Shown piece after piece: positions 8,500-54,114 of a DNA stretch of 64,000 bases. The notes beneath the pieces were generated by a model. That model was not told where the DNA came from. It worked only from the letters and a program-made list of their open reading frames with translations, and made no database searches. The position numbers and the translations under genes were made by a program. How positions within the stretch are numbered: the stretch's first letter is position 1; the number at the start of each line of letters is the position of its first letter. Origin of the DNA: Escherichia coli (GTDB lineage Bacteria > Pseudomonadota > Gammaproteobacteria > Enterobacterales > Enterobacteriaceae); assembly GCF_046105845.1 (NCBI RefSeq), contig NZ_CP151004.1. One strand, written 5' to 3'.

Positions 8500-10337
8500 A
8501 TATGCTTGCCTTAACCATTATTTTGCCATTGATTGGCTTTGTCCTGCTGGCGTTCTCCCGTGGGCGCTGGTCTGAAAACGTCTCGGCGATCGTTGGCGTT
8601 GGCTCTGTAGGCCTGGCGGCACTGGTAACTGCCTTTATTGGCGTCGACTTCTTCGCTAACGGCGAGCAGGCATACAGCCAGCCGCTGTGGACATGGATGT
8701 CGGTAGGCGACTTTAACATCGGTTTTAACCTGGTGCTGGACGGCCTGTCGCTGACCATGCTCTCGGTGGTTACTGGTGTGGGTTTCCTTATTCACATGTA
8801 CGCCTCCTGGTATATGCGCGGTGAAGAGGGCTACTCTCGCTTCTTCGCTTACACCAACCTGTTCATCGCCAGCATGGTAGTTCTGGTGCTTGCCGACAAC
8901 CTGCTGCTGATGTACCTCGGCTGGGAAGGCGTGGGCCTGTGCTCCTATCTGCTGATCGGTTTCTATTACACCGATCCGAAGAATGGCGCAGCGGCAATGA
9001 AAGCGTTCGTCGTGACCCGTGTGGGTGACGTCTTCCTCGCTTTCGCGCTGTTCATTCTTTACAACGAACTGGGCACCCTGAACTTCCGCGAAATGGTGGA
9101 ACTGGCACCAGCGCACTTTGCTGACGGCAATAACATGCTGATGTGGGCGACGCTGATGCTGCTGGGCGGTGCGGTCGGTAAATCTGCGCAGTTGCCGTTG
9201 CAGACATGGCTTGCCGACGCGATGGCGGGCCCGACGCCTGTCTCCGCGCTGATCCACGCCGCAACGATGGTAACCGCGGGTGTCTACCTGATCGCCCGTA
9301 CCCACGGCCTGTTCCTGATGACGCCGGAAGTTCTGCATCTGGTGGGCATTGTTGGGGCGGTTACGCTGCTGCTGGCCGGTTTTGCGGCGCTGGTACAGAC
9401 CGACATCAAACGTGTTCTCGCTTACTCTACCATGAGCCAGATTGGCTACATGTTCCTCGCGCTTGGCGTACAGGCATGGGATGCGGCGATTTTCCACTTG
9501 ATGACTCACGCGTTCTTTAAAGCGCTGCTGTTCCTGGCATCCGGTTCCGTCATTCTGGCCTGCCATCACGAACAGAACATCTTCAAGATGGGCGGTCTGC
9601 GTAAATCTATTCCGCTGGTTTATCTCTGCTTCCTGGTGGGCGGCGCAGCACTGTCGGCACTGCCGCTGGTCACTGCGGGCTTCTTCAGTAAGGATGAGAT
9701 CCTCGCGGGTGCGATGGCGAATGGTCATATCAATCTGATGGTGGCTGGTCTGGTCGGTGCGTTTATGACCTCGCTCTACACCTTCCGTATGATTTTCATC
9801 GTCTTCCACGGAAAAGAACAAATTCACGCTCACGCCGTGAAAGGGGTAACTCACAGCCTGCCGCTGATTGTGCTGCTGATCCTTTCCACCTTCGTTGGCG
9901 CACTGATTGTACCGCCGCTGCAGGGCGTGCTTCCGCAAACGACGGTGCTGGCGCACGGCAGCATGTTGACCCTGGAAATTACCTCTGGTGTGGTCGCGGT
10001 GGTCGGCATTCTGCTGGCAGCCTGGCTGTGGCTGGGTAAACGTACTCTGGTGACCTCCATCGCCAACAGTGCGCCGGGCCGTCTGCTGGGCACCTGGTGG
10101 TACAACGCCTGGGGCTTTGACTGGCTGTACGACAAAGTGTTCGTCAAGCCGTTCCTGGGTATTGCCTGGTTGCTGAAACGCGATCCGCTGAACTCAATGA
10201 TGAACATCCCGGCTGTCCTTTCCCGCTTTGCAGGTAAAGGTCTGCTGTTAAGCGAGAACGGTTATCTGCGCTGGTATGTGGCATCCATGAGCATCGGTGC
10301 GGTCGTGGTGCTGGCACTGTTGATGGTACTGCGTTGA
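8496..10337 (+). CDS. nuoL: NADH-quinone oxidoreductase subunit L (antiporter-like)
   Basis: 613 aa polytopic membrane protein. Confidence 0.95.
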
Positions 10338-46966: not shown

Positions 46967-48325
46967 ATGTTGAGTATTTTTAAACCAGCGCCACACAAAG
47001 CGCGCTTACCTGCCGCGGAGATCGATCCGACTTATCGTCGATTGCGTTGGCAAATTTTCCTGGGGATATTCTTTGGTTATGCTGCTTACTATTTGGTTCG
47101 TAAGAACTTTGCCCTCGCTATGCCTTATCTGGTCGAGCAGGGCTTCTCACGCGGTGATTTAGGTTTTGCCCTTTCGGGGATCTCGATCGCTTATGGATTT
47201 TCGAAATTCATCATGGGCTCGGTGTCGGATCGCTCGAATCCGCGCGTTTTCCTGCCCGCAGGTTTGATTCTGGCGGCGGCAGTGATGTTGTTTATGGGCT
47301 TTGTGCCGTGGGCGACGTCGAGCATCGCGGTGATGTTTGTACTGTTGTTCCTCTGCGGTTGGTTCCAGGGGATGGGGTGGCCGCCGTGTGGTCGTACTAT
47401 GGTGCACTGGTGGTCGCAGAAAGAACGTGGCGGCATTGTGTCAGTGTGGAACTGTGCACACAACGTCGGTGGTGGTATTCCGCCGCTGCTGTTCCTGCTG
47501 GGGATGGCCTGGTTCAATGACTGGCACGCGGCGCTCTATATGCCCGCTTTCTGCGCCATTCTGGTGGCACTGTTCGCCTTTGCGATGATGCGCGATACCC
47601 CGCAATCTTGTGGCCTGCCGCCGATCGAAGAGTACAAAAATGATTATCCGGACGACTATAACGAAAAAGCGGAACAGGAGCTGACGGCGAAGCAAATCTT
47701 CATGCAGTACGTGCTGCCGAACAAATTGCTGTGGTACATCGCTATCGCCAACGTGTTCGTTTATCTGCTGCGTTACGGCATCCTCGACTGGTCACCGACT
47801 TATCTGAAAGAGGTGAAACACTTCGCGCTGGATAAATCCTCCTGGGCCTACTTCTTCTATGAGTATGCGGGCATTCCGGGCACCCTGCTGTGCGGCTGGA
47901 TGTCGGATAAAGTCTTCCGTGGCAACCGTGGGGCCACCGGCGTCTTCTTTATGACACTGGTGACCATCGCGACTATCGTTTACTGGATGAACCCGGCAGG
48001 TAACCCAACCGTAGATATGATTTGTATGATTGTTATCGGCTTCCTGATCTACGGCCCTGTGATGCTGATCGGTCTGCATGCGCTGGAACTGGCACCGAAA
48101 AAAGCGGCAGGTACGGCAGCGGGCTTTACCGGGCTGTTTGGTTACCTGGGCGGTTCGGTGGCGGCGAGCGCGATTGTTGGCTACACAGTGGACTTCTTCG
48201 GCTGGGATGGCGGCTTTATGGTAATGATTGGCGGCAGCATTCTGGCGGTTATCTTGTTGATTGTTGTGATGATTGGCGAAAAACGTCGCCATCAGGAATT
48301 ACTGCAAAAACGCAACGGAGGCTAA
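46967..48325 (+). CDS. glpT: Glycerol-3-phosphate:phosphate antiporter (MFS)
   Basis: 452 aa, 12 TM. Confidence 0.95.
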
Positions 48326-48329
48326 TGGC

Positions 48330-49406
48330 ATGAAATTGACGCTGAAAAACCTTAGCATGGCGATCATGATGAGTGGAATGATCATGGGAAGCAGTGCAAT
48401 GGCGGCGGACAGCAACGAAAAAATAGTCATCGCCCATCGCGGTGCCAGTGGATATTTGCCGGAGCATACGCTGCCAGCAAAAGCGATGGCGTATGCGCAG
48501 GGAGCGGATTATCTGGAACAAGATTTAGTGATGACGAAGGATGACCATCTGGTTGTTCTGCATGACCATTATCTCGATCGTGTTACTGATGTTGCCGATC
48601 GTTTCCCGGATCGGGCGCGCAAAGACGGTCGTTACTACGCGATAGATTTCACGCTCGATGAAATTAAGTCACTGAAATTTACCGAAGGTTTCGATATTGA
48701 AAATGGTAAGAAAGTACAGACTTATCCGGGGCGTTTCCCGATGGGTAAATCTGACTTCCGGGTACACACTTTCGAGGAAGAGATTGAATTTGTTCAGGGG
48801 TTAAATCACTCTACCGGGAAAAATATCGGTATCTATCCAGAAATTAAAGCGCCGTGGTTCCATCATCAGGAAGGGAAGGATATTGCGGCAAAAACGCTGG
48901 AAGTGCTGAAGAAATATGGTTACAGCGGTAAGGACGACAAAGTTTATTTGCAATGTTTTGATGCCGATGAACTGAAGCGTATTAAGAATGAGCTGGAACC
49001 TAAAATGGGCATGGACCTCAATCTGGTACAGCTGATTGCCTATACCGACTGGAACGAAACTCAGCAGAAACAGCCGGACGGAAGCTGGGTTAATTACAAC
49101 TACGACTGGATGTTTAAGCCGGGGGCCATGAAACAGGTGGCGGAATATGCTGATGGTATTGGTCCGGATTATCATATGTTGATTGAGGAGACATCGCAGC
49201 CAGGTAATATCAAACTCACTGGCATGGTGCAAGATGCTCAGCAGAACAAGCTGGTAGTGCATCCTTATACCGTGCGGTCAGATAAACTGCCTGAATACAC
49301 TACTGATGTGAATCAGTTATATGATGCTCTGTATAACAAAGCGGGTGTAAATGGGCTGTTTACTGATTTCCCTGATAAGGCAGTAAAATTCCTTAATAAA
49401 GAGTAA
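48330..49406 (+). CDS. glpQ: Periplasmic glycerophosphodiester phosphodiesterase
   Basis: 358 aa from MKLTLKNLSM signal peptide; IVIAHRGASGYLPEHT motif. Confidence 0.95.
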   Translation: MKLTLKNLSMAIMMSGMIMGSSAMAADSNEKIVIAHRGASGYLPEHTLPAKAMAYAQGADYLEQDLVMTKDDHLVVLHDHYLDRVTDVADRFPDRARKDGRYYAIDFTLDEIKSLKFTEGFDIENGKKVQTYPGRFPMGKSDFRVHTFEEEIEFVQGLNHSTGKNIGIYPEIKAPWFHHQEGKDIAAKTLEVLKKYGYSGKDDKVYLQCFDADELKRIKNELEPKMGMDLNLVQLIAYTDWNETQQKQPDGSWVNYNYDWMFKPGAMKQVAEYADGIGPDYHMLIEETSQPGNIKLTGMVQDAQQNKLVVHPYTVRSDKLPEYTTDVNQLYDALYNKAGVNGLFTDFPDKAVKFLNKE

Positions 49407-49415
49407 TGCTATTGC

Positions 49416-49439
49416 AGGATGGCGTTCATGCGCCATCCT
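49416..49439 (+). terminator. Hairpin after glpQ
   Basis: 9-bp stem AGGATGGCG/CGCCATCCT. Confidence 0.45.
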
Positions 49440-49626
49440 CTGCTAAAGCGAAATAATGCTACTTCCGGTTGTTCTATTCATTAACCGGTGCATCCTGTTA
49501 AAAAAGATGCCAACATATTTGCATAAAACTCATTCGTTAAGAAAGCTAACACTGGGCATTGTTATTCCTTAAACAGTATGAATTGGGTTCAATAATAAAT
49601 TGTATTGCAGTTTATACTGTAAAGTA

Positions 49627-50697
49627 TTATTCGCATTTCGGGAAAGTAAAGAAAATATTAATGTATCTTATTAATTTATTATATTGTTCTTGAGTGAATG
49701 CTATTTGCACACCTTCAGGATAATATTCACCAGTAATAACCAGTTGTCCATTGCTGTGTTGTACCATTAAACCTTTTTTTTCCTTTGGATCTTCAAACTT
49801 AGAATTATCAAACGTGAAGATGTTATTTTCCTGTTTTGAGTAAGCAAAGAAATCTCGTGTATAGCTGAAACTATCATTTATTAATGGTGCTAACTTTTTG
49901 TCGGCGATATCGATAAGCTCACCACTTAATTTATTGATGTATTTCATTTGGTTCAATTTTTTCTGCGCTTGTACAATTTGCTTGTAGGTATTTTTAATTT
50001 CCTTAGAAGAATTCTTGAATTTATCATAGCGTTCCACGGAGGATGCGTATTTGTACCATTCTGTATTTTTCTCAGAATGTAGTAGCAGGTCTGTATATTT
50101 TTTTTGATCGCTGTAAAGTTGACTTTTAATACTTTCCTCACTGCTGGTTTTATAAGGTTTATCAGAGCTGTTTATTTTTGAAATGTCTTTTTCTGTCGGT
50201 GACTGGACCGTGTTGTGGATATTTTCTTTTATAACATGTTCATTGATGATGTTAATTGCAGTTTCATATTCATTTAAGTTTATTGTTCTTTGTGAAATAA
50301 ACCCTTCTTTGCTTTCGACACTCAAAATACCTTCGTTGTTTTCACCTCGGGTAAAGGTAAGGGTATAGGGTTCATAATCCGCTGCAAATTCATTTTTATA
50401 CGTTATGACATGTTCGACAAAATGTCTTATTGGTACGAAACCATAACTGTGAACGTCAATTTTTTGGGTCTTGATACTATCAATTGCATCTGAGGCTTTC
50501 GTGAAAAAAGCCAATAAATTAGCTATGCTGTCTGCTGAAGTTGATAACCCGTATCTACTTTGAGATATTTTTAGAAACTCATCGCAAAAAAACTCAAGTT
50601 TCGCGGTTTGTTGTGATTCTTTGTAAATTTCTGCTGGTTGCAATTTATTATTTTGTAAAATATTACAGCGAGATAAGTGAATAGATGTATTTGGCAT
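49627..50697 (-). CDS. Uncharacterised AT-rich ORF (hypothetical cytoplasmic protein, Lys/Asn/Glu-rich)
   Basis: 368-codon open frame on the ORF track; GGAA RBS 7 nt before the internal ATG at 50697 gives 356 aa; no signal peptide or TM; no motif I recognise; base composition strongly AT-rich compared with glpQ and inaA flanks. Confidence 0.7.
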   Translation of the reverse strand: MPNTSIHLSRCNILQNNKLQPAEIYKESQQTAKLEFFCDEFLKISQSRYGLSTSADSIANLLAFFTKASDAIDSIKTQKIDVHSYGFVPIRHFVEHVITYKNEFAADYEPYTLTFTRGENNEGILSVESKEGFISQRTINLNEYETAINIINEHVIKENIHNTVQSPTEKDISKINSSDKPYKTSSEESIKSQLYSDQKKYTDLLLHSEKNTEWYKYASSVERYDKFKNSSKEIKNTYKQIVQAQKKLNQMKYINKLSGELIDIADKKLAPLINDSFSYTRDFFAYSKQENNIFTFDNSKFEDPKEKKGLMVQHSNGQLVITGEYYPEGVQIAFTQEQYNKLIRYINIFFTFPKCE

Positions 50698-50766
50698 AAA
50701 TGATTCCTTGTATTGTGAGTTAACAAGATACAATCTAATCTTTGCAAAATATATTCACTATCAAAT

Positions 50767-50985
50767 TTAGCTCATTTTATTACGAAGACCTTTACGCATG
50801 GTAGAAAGTATCATTATTGTTAATAAATACGGTAATAAGTAACAAACAGATATTGATAACTTCCCTGAAAAGTTACTAGGTATCCCACTTGAAGATTGAG
50901 AATGGCTCCAGAGTAAACTGTGTACTGTTCGCCGGAGTGTCATTACTCTCAACGATCGGTTTTGACAGTGAGTCGGGCGCTTCAT
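50767..50985 (-). CDS. Possible small membrane protein upstream of the ORFan (speculative)
   Basis: 72-aa ORF with hydrophobic stretch ISVCYLLPYLLTIMILSTM; no clear RBS identified; could be non-coding. Confidence 0.2.
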   Translation of the reverse strand: MKRPTHCQNRSLRVMTLRRTVHSLLWSHSQSSSGIPSNFSGKLSISVCYLLPYLLTIMILSTMRKGLRNKMS

Positions 50986-51162
50986 ACCGGTTTCTACCTG
51001 GAGTCATTGTCACTTCTCCCAACTGGATAAATATATATCGCCAATTCACAAAGTGGGCCAAAATCAGGTGAAAACGAATTATTACGCCTGGTAAAGGCTA
51101 TAGTACAACTAAGTGTGGCGAATCAGGCAGTCTTGCATTTGTCATCAATCTCATGTCTTACA

Positions 51163-52041
51163 TCAAATTTTTCCACTCACCACGAGTTGTTCCGTACACG
51201 TTTGTAGTAAAAACAGTGGACTGCCTTCTACCGGCTTTTCTTTAGCCAGCAACGAAATCTGTCGATAGAAGGTTGGTTCGAGAGGAACGGAACACAATTC
51301 ATCTGCAATGGTTTTCAGCGTTAACTCTGGTAATAAGGCGATGCCTAATCCCTGTCGAATAAAACTGATCGCTGTATCCGGGTGATTAAATTCATATTTT
51401 ATCTGTGGGGTAATATTCTTTTCTTTAAATAGTGCCATAATGCTTAATTCATAGCGTCCTTTACTAATAATTAATGGTTCACCCATTAACTCTTCCACTG
51501 TAATAGTGCTGTTTTTTGCCAGAGCATGGTTGGGCGGTAACACTACGGTGAATTTATCCTGATAAATGGGCACGGAGTACATTCCGCTCACCGGAAAATG
51601 AACAAAACCGGCATCAATGGATTCATTCTGAAGGGAATCAATAATCGCTGTGCTATTTTCCTCAAAAGGAATAATTTTTATATTCGGATGATGAATTTCA
51701 AAGTAGCGAATCACAGCCGGTAAGATACAGGCGCAGACGCTGGGGAAACAACCAAGTCTCAGCGTTCTTTGAGGGTTCTGCTTTTCCTGCTCGGCTATCT
51801 CTTTTACTGCGTTCACTTCCCGATTAATGGCGCGCAGATGATGCATAATGCGGTGACCTGCAGAGGTCAGTTGTATAGCTTTACGGCGATCGCGTAACAG
51901 TATATTCACGCCAAGTTCTTGTTCGAGGGCAGCAATTGCCTGACTTACCGCCGACTGCGTCATGAACAATCGCTTGCTGGCTTCAGTAAAGCCACCGTAA
52001 TCCAGCACGGCGAGTAAAGAATTTATTTGGGTAAGAGTCAT
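51163..52041 (-). CDS. LysR-family transcriptional regulator (intact counterpart of K-12 yfaH fragment)
   Basis: 292 aa; N-terminal HTH FTEASKRLFMTQSAVSQAIAALE; divergent from MFS gene. Confidence 0.85.
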   Translation of the reverse strand: MTLTQINSLLAVLDYGGFTEASKRLFMTQSAVSQAIAALEQELGVNILLRDRRKAIQLTSAGHRIMHHLRAINREVNAVKEIAEQEKQNPQRTLRLGCFPSVCACILPAVIRYFEIHHPNIKIIPFEENSTAIIDSLQNESIDAGFVHFPVSGMYSVPIYQDKFTVVLPPNHALAKNSTITVEELMGEPLIISKGRYELSIMALFKEKNITPQIKYEFNHPDTAISFIRQGLGIALLPELTLKTIADELCSVPLEPTFYRQISLLAKEKPVEGSPLFLLQTCTEQLVVSGKI

Positions 52042-52192
52042 TAGAGTTTGCTAATCAATAATATTAAAACGATTAATTTCTCTAATAGCATGCCGCCATT
52101 TATACTTCTGTTCTGCAAAGTACATCACAATTTGACGCAACCGCAGTAACGGGAGTGTTGTCTGCGTGCGTCATCCTGACAGGCGGTAGGGT

Positions 52193-53383
52193 ATGAAAGA
52201 GAAGTTATGGACGAAGGATTTTTGGGCAATAACCATCATCAGCTTTATTATTTTCTTCGTCTTTTATGTTTTACTAACATTGTTGCCAATTTATATCTCT
52301 GACCGCTTGCATGCCTCTCCTGATAAAGCCGGTTTATTGGTGACTTTATTTTTAATTGCCGCCATTGTTATTCGCCCATTTGCCGGGCAATGGGTGGGTA
52401 AATACTCGAATAAAACTATTCTGGTGCTCTCTTCTCTGGCCTTTTTATTGGTCACAGCGTTGTATCCTTTTTGCCACTCAATTGAATCACTGCTTTTTAT
52501 TCGGGTGCTTCATGGTATTACCTTCGGGGTTATCACTACGGTAAAAGGAACGATTTCCGCGCGGCTGATCCCGGCCTCCCGACGTGGGGAGGGCATCAGT
52601 TTTTTCTCTCTGGCAATGGGGCTGGCAATGGTGGTCGGGCCGTGGATTGGCCTGAATATGGCGCGCTGGGAGGCCTTTAATATGGCTTTCTGGTTATGCA
52701 CCGGCGTGGCAGCGGTGGGGATTATTCTGTCGCTGATTATGACAGTGCCGCCGGTTATCAGCCATGCTGATGGTTCAACGCCGAAAATGGGCTTCGCCGC
52801 CATGTTCGATCGCGCGGCGTTGCCATTTGCGATGGTCACCTTTTTTATGACCTTTTCGTATGCCGGGGTTTCTGCTTTTCTGGCGCTTTATGCACGCGAA
52901 CTTAACCTGATGTCGGCAGCCAGTAATTTCCTGCTTTGCTACGCTATCTTCCTGATGATTTGCCGTACCTTTACCGGCAATGTCTGCGACAAAAAAGGAC
53001 CGAAATATGTGGTTTACCCTTGCCTTGTGTTCTTTACGGTAGGACTGGTGGTTCTCGGCTACACCCAGGGAAGCATAATGATGGTTGTTTCTGGCGCATT
53101 GATTGGTATCGGGTATGGTTCCGTGACGCCAGTTTTTCAGACGCAGATTATCAGTTCAGTGGAACCGCATAAAATCGGTGTCGCAAACTCCCTCTTCTTC
53201 AATGCGATGGATGCAGGCCTGGCGCTGGGAGCCTTTGTGATGGGGATGATGGTTGCACATACTGGCTACCGAATGATTTATCTGCTGGGTGCACTATTAG
53301 TGGTGGTGGCTGGTGGAGTCTATGCGCTGCAAATGAAGGGTAAAAGCGGTGTCGCGCTAGTAGTGGCAAAAGAAATTCATTAA
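52193..53383 (+). CDS. MFS transporter (probable LysR target)
   Basis: 396 aa, about 12 TM segments, divergently transcribed from the LysR gene. Confidence 0.85.
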   Translation: MKEKLWTKDFWAITIISFIIFFVFYVLLTLLPIYISDRLHASPDKAGLLVTLFLIAAIVIRPFAGQWVGKYSNKTILVLSSLAFLLVTALYPFCHSIESLLFIRVLHGITFGVITTVKGTISARLIPASRRGEGISFFSLAMGLAMVVGPWIGLNMARWEAFNMAFWLCTGVAAVGIILSLIMTVPPVISHADGSTPKMGFAAMFDRAALPFAMVTFFMTFSYAGVSAFLALYARELNLMSAASNFLLCYAIFLMICRTFTGNVCDKKGPKYVVYPCLVFFTVGLVVLGYTQGSIMMVVSGALIGIGYGSVTPVFQTQIISSVEPHKIGVANSLFFNAMDAGLALGAFVMGMMVAHTGYRMIYLLGALLVVVAGGVYALQMKGKSGVALVVAKEIH

Positions 53384-53463
53384 TACGACACGTTTCATTA
53401 AGATTTTTCGCAGGTAACCACCTATAGTCATTGTCGTTAATAAAAAATGACAGGCGATAGGGT

Positions 53464-54114
53464 ATGGCAGTTTCAGCAAAGCACGACGAATTTAATCACT
53501 GGTGGGCAACAGAGGGCGACTGGGTTGAAGAGCCTAACTATCGCCGTAATGGTATGAGCGGGGTGCAATGCGTCGAGCGCAACGGCAAAAAGCTATATGT
53601 AAAGCGCATGACGCATCATCTGTTTCATTCCGTACGTTATCCGTTCGGCCGACCAACGATTGTCCGTGAGGTTGCGGTAATTAAAGAACTGGAACGGGCC
53701 GGTGTCATCGTGCCGAAGATCGTTTTTGGTGAAGCAGTGAAAATTGAGGGGGAATGGCGCGCGTTGCTGGTGACTGAAGATATGGCGGGGTTCATCAGCA
53801 TTGCTGACTGGTATGCCCAGCATGCAGTAACGCCCTATTCTGACGAAGTACGGCAAGCCATGTTGAAAGCAGTGGCGCTGGCGTTTAAGAAAATGCATAG
53901 CGTTAATCGTCAGCATGGCTGTTGCTATGTTCGCCATATCTATGTGAAAACAGAAGGTAAGGCAGAAGCTGGTTTTCTTGATCTGGAGAAAAGTCGTCGC
54001 CGCTTGCGTCGCGATAAAGCGATTAATCATGACTTCCGCCAGCTGGAAAAATATCTGGAGCCGATCCCTAAAGCGGACTGGGAGCAGGTGAAAGCGTATT
54101 ACTACGCCATGTAA
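53464..54114 (+). CDS. inaA: InaA, Kdo/WaaP-like lipopolysaccharide kinase family protein
   Basis: 216 aa. Confidence 0.9.
   Translation: MAVSAKHDEFNHWWATEGDWVEEPNYRRNGMSGVQCVERNGKKLYVKRMTHHLFHSVRYPFGRPTIVREVAVIKELERAGVIVPKIVFGEAVKIEGEWRALLVTEDMAGFISIADWYAQHAVTPYSDEVRQAMLKAVALAFKKMHSVNRQHGCCYVRHIYVKTEGKAEAGFLDLEKSRRRLRRDKAINHDFRQLEKYLEPIPKADWEQVKAYYYAM

Follow-up and report, generated by a model that had tools for sequence, protein, structure and literature searches.

The subject of this analysis is a LysR-type regulator gene and the divergently oriented major facilitator superfamily (MFS) transporter gene next to it, in a 64,000-nucleotide stretch of an Escherichia coli genome (assembly GCF_046105845.1, contig NZ_CP151004.1; the whole stretch is here called the window). 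We find that this pair is probably the intact form of an ancestral enterobacterial two-gene unit. The pair is already known as O island 97 (OI-97; z3494/z3495) of enterohemorrhagic E. coli (EHEC) O157:H7, and its remnant in K-12 is the pseudogene yfaH. Conserved synteny, protein identity that falls with phylogeny, low ratios of nonsynonymous to synonymous substitution (dN/dS), the lack of mobility genes, and the scar left in K-12 all argue for an ancestral intact state and against lateral acquisition, the two genes having been passed on together at one chromosomal position throughout the Enterobacteriaceae.

The listing of open reading frames (ORFs) places the two genes, with the spacer between them, exactly where a preliminary description of this DNA had put them. 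That description had also read them as a full-length 292-amino-acid (aa) LysR regulator and a 396-aa MFS transporter with 12 transmembrane (TM) segments, and the ORFs, Pfam matches, and hydropathy agree with it. On one side of the pair lie glpT, glpQ, and then an orphan ORF; on the other lies inaA, followed by yfaE, nrdB, and nrdA. The coordinates of these and other features are collected in Table 1.

Table 1. Features of the LysR/MFS locus and related sites in the window
Feature	Position	Strand	Remarks
Second match to the operator core, ATTAAAACTATTAAT	15979..15993		14/15 identical to the operator core
407-aa ORF containing ATTAAAACTATTAAT	15595..16818	-	AT-rich coding sequence
glpT	46967..48325		
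glpQ	ends at 49406		
Orphan segment	49440..51150		1.7 kb, 34% GC; absent from K-12
Orphan ORF	49627..50733	-	32% GC; ATG-start version 49627..50697, 356 aa
LysR-type regulator gene	51163..52041	-	ATG start, 292 aa; orthologue of EHEC Z3495
Left 8-bp microhomology, TTTATCTG	51398..51405	.	K-12-type deletion endpoint
Shared divergent control region	52042..52192	.	151 bp; wholly gone in the K-12 deletion
36-bp block, predicted LysR operator region	52051..52086	.	near-invariant across eight genera (spacer alignment, per-genus listing)
Candidate LysR site, ATTAAAACGATTAAT	52063..52077	.	dyad ATTAA-N5-TTAAT with T-N11-A; core of the 36-bp block
Second invariant element, TGTGAT toward LysR	52124..52129	.	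ATCACA on +; invariant in the eight-genus spacer alignment
Perfect 7-bp inverted repeat, TGACGCA/TGCGTCA	52133..52139 and 52167..52173		presumed MFS leader; E. coli and E. albertii
MFS transporter gene	52193..53383	+	ATG start, 396 aa; orthologue of EHEC Z3494
Mosaic patch in the MFS gene	~52687..53087		89-93% identity to O157:H7 over ~400 bp
Right 8-bp microhomology, TTTATCTG	53277..53284	.	K-12-type deletion endpoint
inaA	53464..54114		

In MG1655, the interval between inaA and glpQ holds a single annotated feature, the pseudogene yfaH (b2238, 2349687-2349893). By BLAST and global alignment, the K-12 region matches the window over positions 51151-51397 (to 51409 in the BLAST match) and then resumes directly at 53277; the segment with the orphan ORF is missing from K-12 as well. 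The junction holds one copy of TTTATCTG, and the absent 1,879 bp correspond to 51406-53284 or, equivalently, to 51398-53276. The K-12 state is one 1,879-bp deletion between 8-bp direct repeats. Gone with it are some 212 codons from the start of the regulator gene, all of the control region, and some 363 codons from the start of the transporter gene. The 3′ end of the LysR gene is left joined to ~100 bp from that of the MFS gene, and both stubs are labeled "incomplete" in a Prokaryotic Genome Annotation Pipeline (PGAP) annotation of a K-12 derivative. The preliminary description had held that MG1655 retains only a short yfaH LysR fragment between inaA and glpQ. Alignment and annotation both agree on the fragment, and the intact genes are not in MG1655, although LysR sequence is not all that is left, since the ~100 bp of MFS sequence is also kept. 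The NCBIfam model NF007272, built for the 68-aa K-12 "YfaH" hypothetical protein, picks up residues 226-292 of the intact regulator, scoring 144.7 bits where the cutoff is 139; the model is simply the yfaH fragment of that regulator. Literature searches for "yfaH" turned up nothing beyond its service as a neutral marker site in MG1655.

For comparison, regulator orthologues were taken with their genomic context from seven other genera. The order nrdA-nrdB-yfaE, MFS gene, LysR gene, glpQ-glpT is found in Salmonella, Citrobacter, E. albertii, and Pluralibacter. In Scandinavium the pair occupies the same slot and glpQ is absent; in Klebsiella it lies beside yfaE, with other genes in place of glpQ-glpT; and in Leminorella the two genes are together in a different neighborhood. 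The proteins are 292 and 396 aa long in the orthologues of eight genera, except in Leminorella (295 and 393 aa), and none of the genes has internal stops. Amino acid identity to the window proteins (LysR and MFS, respectively) is 89% and 93% in E. albertii, 80% and 86% in Salmonella, 76% and 86% in Citrobacter, 69% and 85% in Klebsiella, and 60% and 79% in Leminorella. Both genes are under strong purifying selection, and dN/dS is 0.02 to 0.09 for each wherever dS is unsaturated. A search for papers under STM2280/STM2281, our guessed tags for the Salmonella orthologues, found none. Because the pair holds the same place in other taxa and K-12 keeps truncated 3′ ends around a microhomology junction, K-12 is the derived, deleted state. 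The suggestion in the preliminary description that this strain keeps a module lost by the laboratory strain is borne out by both the synteny in other genera and the K-12 junction.

The same comparison bears on the opposite history, in which the pair would be a laterally acquired islet (an "O island") gained independently by O157 and other pathogenic lineages, and K-12 would never have had it. Wang et al. (2024; PMC10819331) read the locus in this way. K-12 lacks the module, which is patchy within E. coli, its GC content is somewhat low (43% for the LysR gene and 48% for the MFS gene, versus 51.5% for the window), and the divergent LysR allele of strain F8111-1SC3, described below, shows that recombination occurs at the locus. 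We nevertheless regard this history as highly improbable. K-12 keeps a 3′ remnant of each gene, correctly oriented and at an 8-bp microhomology junction, which is the signature of a deletion and differs from an empty site, and these remnants are related to the module (92% identical over 247 bp). The pair is found in the same slot beside yfaE in six other genera, protein identity is lower the more distant the relative, and dS reaches saturation at the depth expected. No integrase, tRNA, flanking repeats, or mobility genes were found around the pair in the window. The pair does not have the features of a laterally acquired genomic island.

Following the preliminary description's proposal to look at the distribution of the pair in the pangenome, we scored 5,426 complete E. 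coli genomes, counting a module as intact when at least 80% of the 2.2-kb module was present and as K-12-type when at least 80% of an 80-bp junction probe was covered. The intact module is present in 1,215 genomes (22%), the K-12-type deletion junction in 3,116 (57%), and an empty arrangement of the EcN/B2 type in 1,057 (19.5%). In the EcN-type arrangement, 71 unrelated bp stand in place of everything between the region downstream of glpQ and the stop codon of the transporter gene. Among the few dozen genomes left over are some with IS1 insertions or IS1-associated deletions, and truncated regulator proteins are common in the protein database. B2-type strains lost the unit separately and completely, and the K-12 and B2 states are independent losses.

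The locus has also been reached by recombination. E. coli F8111-1SC3 carries a replacement allele. Over the equivalent of ~51100-52390 of the window, which takes in the LysR gene, the spacer, and ~200 bp from the start of the MFS gene, it is only 76-83% identical to the window, and the rest of the MFS gene is ~99% identical. The F8111-1SC3 regulator has 84% aa identity to that of the window and is thus more divergent than the E. albertii orthologue; because a sub-lineage carries so divergent a LysR allele, recombination must occur here. Ninety-eight genomes fall in the 80-90% bin of module identity. Within the MFS gene of the window, identity to O157:H7 is 97-100% on either side of a patch in which it falls (Table 1), and this mosaic suggests intragenic recombination.

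The regulator has the make-up of a LysR-type transcriptional regulator (LTTR), with a predicted N-terminal helix-turn-helix (HTH) domain, a predicted C-terminal effector domain, and a length of about 300 aa. Pfam HTH_1 (PF00126) matches residues 3-63 (65.6 bits against a cutoff of 26.6; E = 4e-18) and LysR_substrate (PF03466) matches residues 88-267 (126.9 bits against a cutoff of 28; E = 9e-37), and the protein aligns over its full length with the solved structures of CysB, BenM, and OxyR. Among NCBIfam models there was no equivalog-level match, the best (GltC, CidR, AlsR, and CynR) all being far under their cutoffs. It is identical to the O157:H7 protein at 287 of 292 residues. PADLOC matches for the regulator and the transporter were marginal (E = 0.002-0.008) and were dismissed.

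The spacer between the two genes was aligned from eight genera. The most conserved part is the 36-bp block of Table 1, which reads ATTAG-NN-AAATTAATC-R-TTTTAAT-N5-T-N-ATTAG toward the LysR gene. Its core, ATTAAAACGATTAAT, is the box that turned up when the spacer was searched for the LysR-type T-N11-A motif, as the preliminary description had proposed, and it is conserved across the genera. With this dyad, the putative shared promoter region carries the further element that marks LTTR genes. In the window, the box is 21 nt from the LysR ATG and 115 nt from the MFS ATG. The 21-nt distance is identical in all 11 sequences from the eight genera, including the strongly divergent allele of the F8111 type, which keeps both the operator box and its spacing.

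The core pattern ATTAA-N5-TTAAT has a chance expectation of 0.07 per 64 kb and was observed twice in the window. The second match, ATTAAAACTATTAAT, lies inside an ORF that we take to be elaD and is probably due to chance. A 24-nt extended pattern gave 27 matches across 100,044 species genomes (one genome per species). Twenty-one of these stand beside LysR/MFS orthologues, in Citrobacter, Kluyvera, Superficieibacter, Pluralibacter, Klebsiella spallanzanii, Salmonella subspecies, Leminorella, cryptic Escherichia, and one "Collinsella" contig from a metagenome-assembled genome (MAG); the other six are chance matches in AT-rich, nonenteric genomes. Two of the loci seen in these comparisons have peculiarities of their own. 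The 3.5-kb contig "MAG: Collinsella sp." (JAIJJM010000334.1) encodes a LysR/MFS pair with 99-100% protein identity to that of E. coli and is almost certainly E. coli contamination. In Kluyvera genomosp. 3 YDC799, the LysR orthologue (~8632-9506) aligns by tblastn as two abutting pieces, residues 1-59 and 60-292, which suggests a frameshift and possibly regulator decay outside E. coli too.

The second invariant element of the spacer, TGTGAT, is 79-82 nt from the LysR ATG in all sequences except Citrobacter, and anything from 63 to 114 nt separates it from the MFS ATG. It may belong to the MFS promoter, as the −10 region, or be bound by another factor. As a CRP site it was rejected, since by eye only the left half-site is conserved across the aligned genera. 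The inverted repeat of Table 1 lies in what is presumed to be the MFS leader and has no support as a structure shared by the genera. A conserved leader RNA upstream of the MFS gene was also considered and rejected, the eight-genus consensus fold being negligible, with −1.56 kcal/mol and five pairs. An Rfam scan of 49300-53600 gave only a spurious, sub-threshold match to a eukaryotic long noncoding RNA, and a consensus scan of the spacer found no terminators.

The transporter has the two features expected of an MFS protein, namely a match to the MFS_1 profile (PF07690; residues 14-346, 201.7 bits against a cutoff of 33.4, E = 2e-59) and 12 predicted TM segments, seen as 12 hydrophobic segments in a Kyte-Doolittle scan. 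It differs from the O157 protein at five positions (391/396 identical). The family assignment by hidden Markov model search that the preliminary description had called for thus gives an MFS_1 member, which does not reach the cutoffs of the YfcJ/YhhS subfamilies. The best NCBIfam matches, PRK05122 and PRK12382, are sub-threshold (110.9 bits against 374 and 84 against 364), as is that to the staphylopine exporter CntE, which is also among the best. A full-length alignment with K-12 YhhS shows 24% identity, and YfcJ aligns over a 119-aa stretch only. By score, the protein is a relative of the YfcJ/YhhS subfamilies and not a member, and it represents a separate, uncharacterized MFS subfamily confined to Enterobacterales. 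The closest solved structures are NorA, over the N-terminal half only (E = 6e-13), and SotB. TM5 carries GLAMVVGPWIG at residues 143-153, a partial version of motif C of the DHA1-like drug:H+ antiporters (G-x-x-x-G-P-x-x-G-G) that has GP..G but not the second G. As for motif A, the copy in loop 2-3 (GQWVGKYSNK) is degenerate, and only the one in loop 8-9 (GNVCDKKGPK, residues 262-271) is good.

From these features we consider the protein most likely to be an exporter. The contrary view, that it is an importer (a nutrient symporter) and that the LysR protein activates uptake of a substrate for metabolism elsewhere, draws on the fact that MFS families hold both importers and exporters, so that direction is not fixed by sequence alone; on weak, sub-threshold matches of the transporter to symporter families (aromatic acid, sialate, MhpT, lactate); and on one Klebsiella genome in which two GMC oxidoreductases adjoin the LysR gene. 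We think it quite unlikely, as no catabolic genes travel with the pair in other genera, the strongest similarities are to the exporters NorA, YhhS/YfcJ, CntE, and SotB, and the GP motif in TM5 is like motif C.

Taken together, the pair is most likely an autoregulated LysR activator with the efflux pump that it would control. In this scheme, the regulator would bind the conserved dyad ATTAA-N5-TTAAT, fixed 21 nt upstream of its own start codon. The dyad would lie within or just downstream of the LysR promoter, and the bound regulator would repress its own transcription. With a small-molecule co-inducer bound, it would activate the transporter promoter on the other side. The centers of the box and of TGTGAT are ~56 nt apart, and if TGTGAT marks the MFS −10 region, the box would be near −65, which is the classical position of a LysR site. 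The transporter would most likely be a proton-coupled exporter of the inducer or of a related compound; we lean toward export because of the antiporter-type GP motif in TM5 and because the relatives include NorA, YhhS, SotB, and CntE.

This scheme has to be set against published work on the EHEC copy. Wang et al. (2024; PMC10819331) define OI-97 of O157:H7 EDL933 as 2,006 bp that hold z3494, which has an MFS_YfcJ motif, and the LysR gene z3495. The homology arms and primers in their Table S3 map to window positions 51123-51162, 52018-52079, 52153-52192, and 53277-53316; seven published OI-97 primers or arms match at 38-40 of 40 positions or over their full length, the z3495 arms at 40/40. They report that deletion of z3495 lowers LEE (locus of enterocyte effacement) expression, adherence, and mouse colonization, and that Z3495 binds the rcsF promoter, by electrophoretic mobility shift assay (EMSA) and chromatin immunoprecipitation-quantitative PCR (ChIP-qPCR), and raises LEE through rcsF. 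The ChIP sequencing (ChIP-seq) peaks in the part of their Table S4 considered here have low enrichment (log2 of ~1.2-1.8) and fall mostly in highly expressed genes. Peak coordinates there match the positions of genes in MG1655, with glpQ, glpT, and glpA at 2.351-2.353 Mb as examples, and in the portion that covers the relevant coordinate range there is no interval near rcsF (219.6-220.0 kb in MG1655). A search for the term "rcsF" in the whole ChIP-seq peak file found nothing. Because the peak coordinates coincide with MG1655 positions, the reference may have been K-12-like and without OI-97, in which case the OI-97 spacer could not have been scored. A literature search for ECs3121-3123 and OI-98 found nothing.

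On the strength of that work, the regulator could be mainly a global or virulence regulator, acting on rcsF, the Rcs phosphorelay, and LEE, with an unrelated MFS neighbor whose divergence is incidental. The deletion phenotypes fit this, as loss of z3495 lowers LEE expression, adherence, and mouse colonization and loss of z3494 does not (PMC10819331), and so do the EMSA and ChIP-qPCR results for rcsF. We judge it unlikely all the same. The pair is kept as a unit in genera without LEE, and in a new neighborhood in Leminorella, and no noncoding sequence is better conserved than a LysR-type dyad in the spacer that the two genes share. This box has no good copy in the fragment published as the rcsF target (K-12 copy), where the best match has three mismatches in 10 specified positions, and the ChIP-seq data, in the part described above, show low enrichments and no interval near rcsF in MG1655-like coordinates. 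Because the rcsF fragment is without a good copy of the box, we regard the rcsF/LEE effect in EHEC as a secondary or lineage-specific output.

Several points weigh against an autoregulated activator of an efflux pump. The rcsF fragment cuts both ways, as either the recognition code comprises more than the box or binding at rcsF is noncanonical. Deletion of z3494 had no virulence phenotype (PMC10819331). In one Citrobacter strain, 56 nt are inserted between the box and TGTGAT, which breaks the proposed −65/−10 spacing, and the consensus scan found no sigma-70 promoter in the spacer, so that the promoter geometry is a predicted one. We infer control of the transporter by the regulator from sequence, the direction of transport is read from remote similarity and a partial motif, and every NCBIfam functional model is far under its cutoff for the pair. 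A bolder extension is possible but doubtful. The pair would be a core, ancient metabolite-sensing efflux unit with its own conserved operator, inactivated at least three separate times in E. coli, through the K-12-type microhomology deletion, the clean loss of the B2 type, and IS1 events, in losses that were adaptive and not neutral. Where it is kept, as in EHEC, Rcs and LEE virulence control would be tied through its inducer to a metabolite signal from the gut or host.

Both flanks of the pair also show changes. K-12, EcN, E. albertii, and Salmonella all lack the orphan segment that lies between glpQ and the LysR gene, and ~710 complete E. coli genomes cover at least 80% of a 4-kb query that includes it. 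Its ORF is annotated as frameshifted in some strains. No Pfam, NCBIfam, PHROG, or PADLOC entry matches the orphan protein, and in two very large protein searches it had no homologue outside Escherichia; its AlphaFold model (mean predicted local distance difference test score [pLDDT], 40.6) is too poor for a fold search. Unlike the LysR/MFS pair, the segment looks like a true lineage-specific insertion. It varies independently of the K-12-type deletion, since strain 19KM1776 has both. On the other flank, E. coli alone has inaA separating yfaE from the MFS gene; the two abut directly in E. albertii, Salmonella, Citrobacter, and Pluralibacter. It therefore appears that inaA came to this site, by insertion or by a move, within the E. 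coli lineage.

Beyond what was known of OI-97, this analysis adds the exact anatomy of the deletion, the three-state population structure, the evidence that the module is ancestral, a specific and conserved candidate operator, and a putative link between regulator and target. As OI-97 is an ancestral module lost by most commensal and laboratory E. coli, and not a pathogen acquisition, the evolutionary argument of the one functional paper on it (PMC10819331) changes. K-12 is unusable for studying the regulator because it has lost the promoter, the HTH domain, and the partner, and mapping-based experiments that rely on a K-12 reference will miss the locus. The candidate operator at 52051-52086 (core ATTAA-N5-TTAAT), with the divergent MFS gene as the obvious candidate for its primary target, would be the shortest route to the inducer. 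The practical value is small but real.

Of the known systems, OI-97 is the closest, having the same locus, the same genes, proteins that are 98-99% identical, and the same flanks on the glpQ and inaA sides. The window copy belongs to another lineage, with 96.9% nucleotide identity over the module and the mosaic patch in the MFS gene, and whereas OI-97 was treated as laterally acquired (PMC10819331), the present evidence points to an ancestral module that was deleted in K-12. The K-12 yfaH (b2238) corresponds to the last ~80 codons of the window LysR gene, at 92% identity over 247 bp, and differs in that the HTH domain, the greater part of the effector domain, the promoter, and the transporter partner, all of them intact in the window, are missing. 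The transporter shares the 12-TM MFS fold family with MFS proteins of the YhhS/YfcJ type (CDD MFS_YfcJ_like) and with the DHA1 pump NorA. The similarity to NorA lies in the N-terminal half, and the transporter differs from YhhS/YfcJ in being far under the subfamily cutoffs. The regulator, for its part, differs from the characterized LysR proteins in having no equivalog-level similarity to any of them. In its arrangement, the unit resembles the classical divergent LysR/target units with a T-N11-A site, of which AaeR-aaeXAB of E. coli is an example. It shares with them the divergent layout, a common spacer of ~150 bp, and a T-N11-A dyad near the regulator start.

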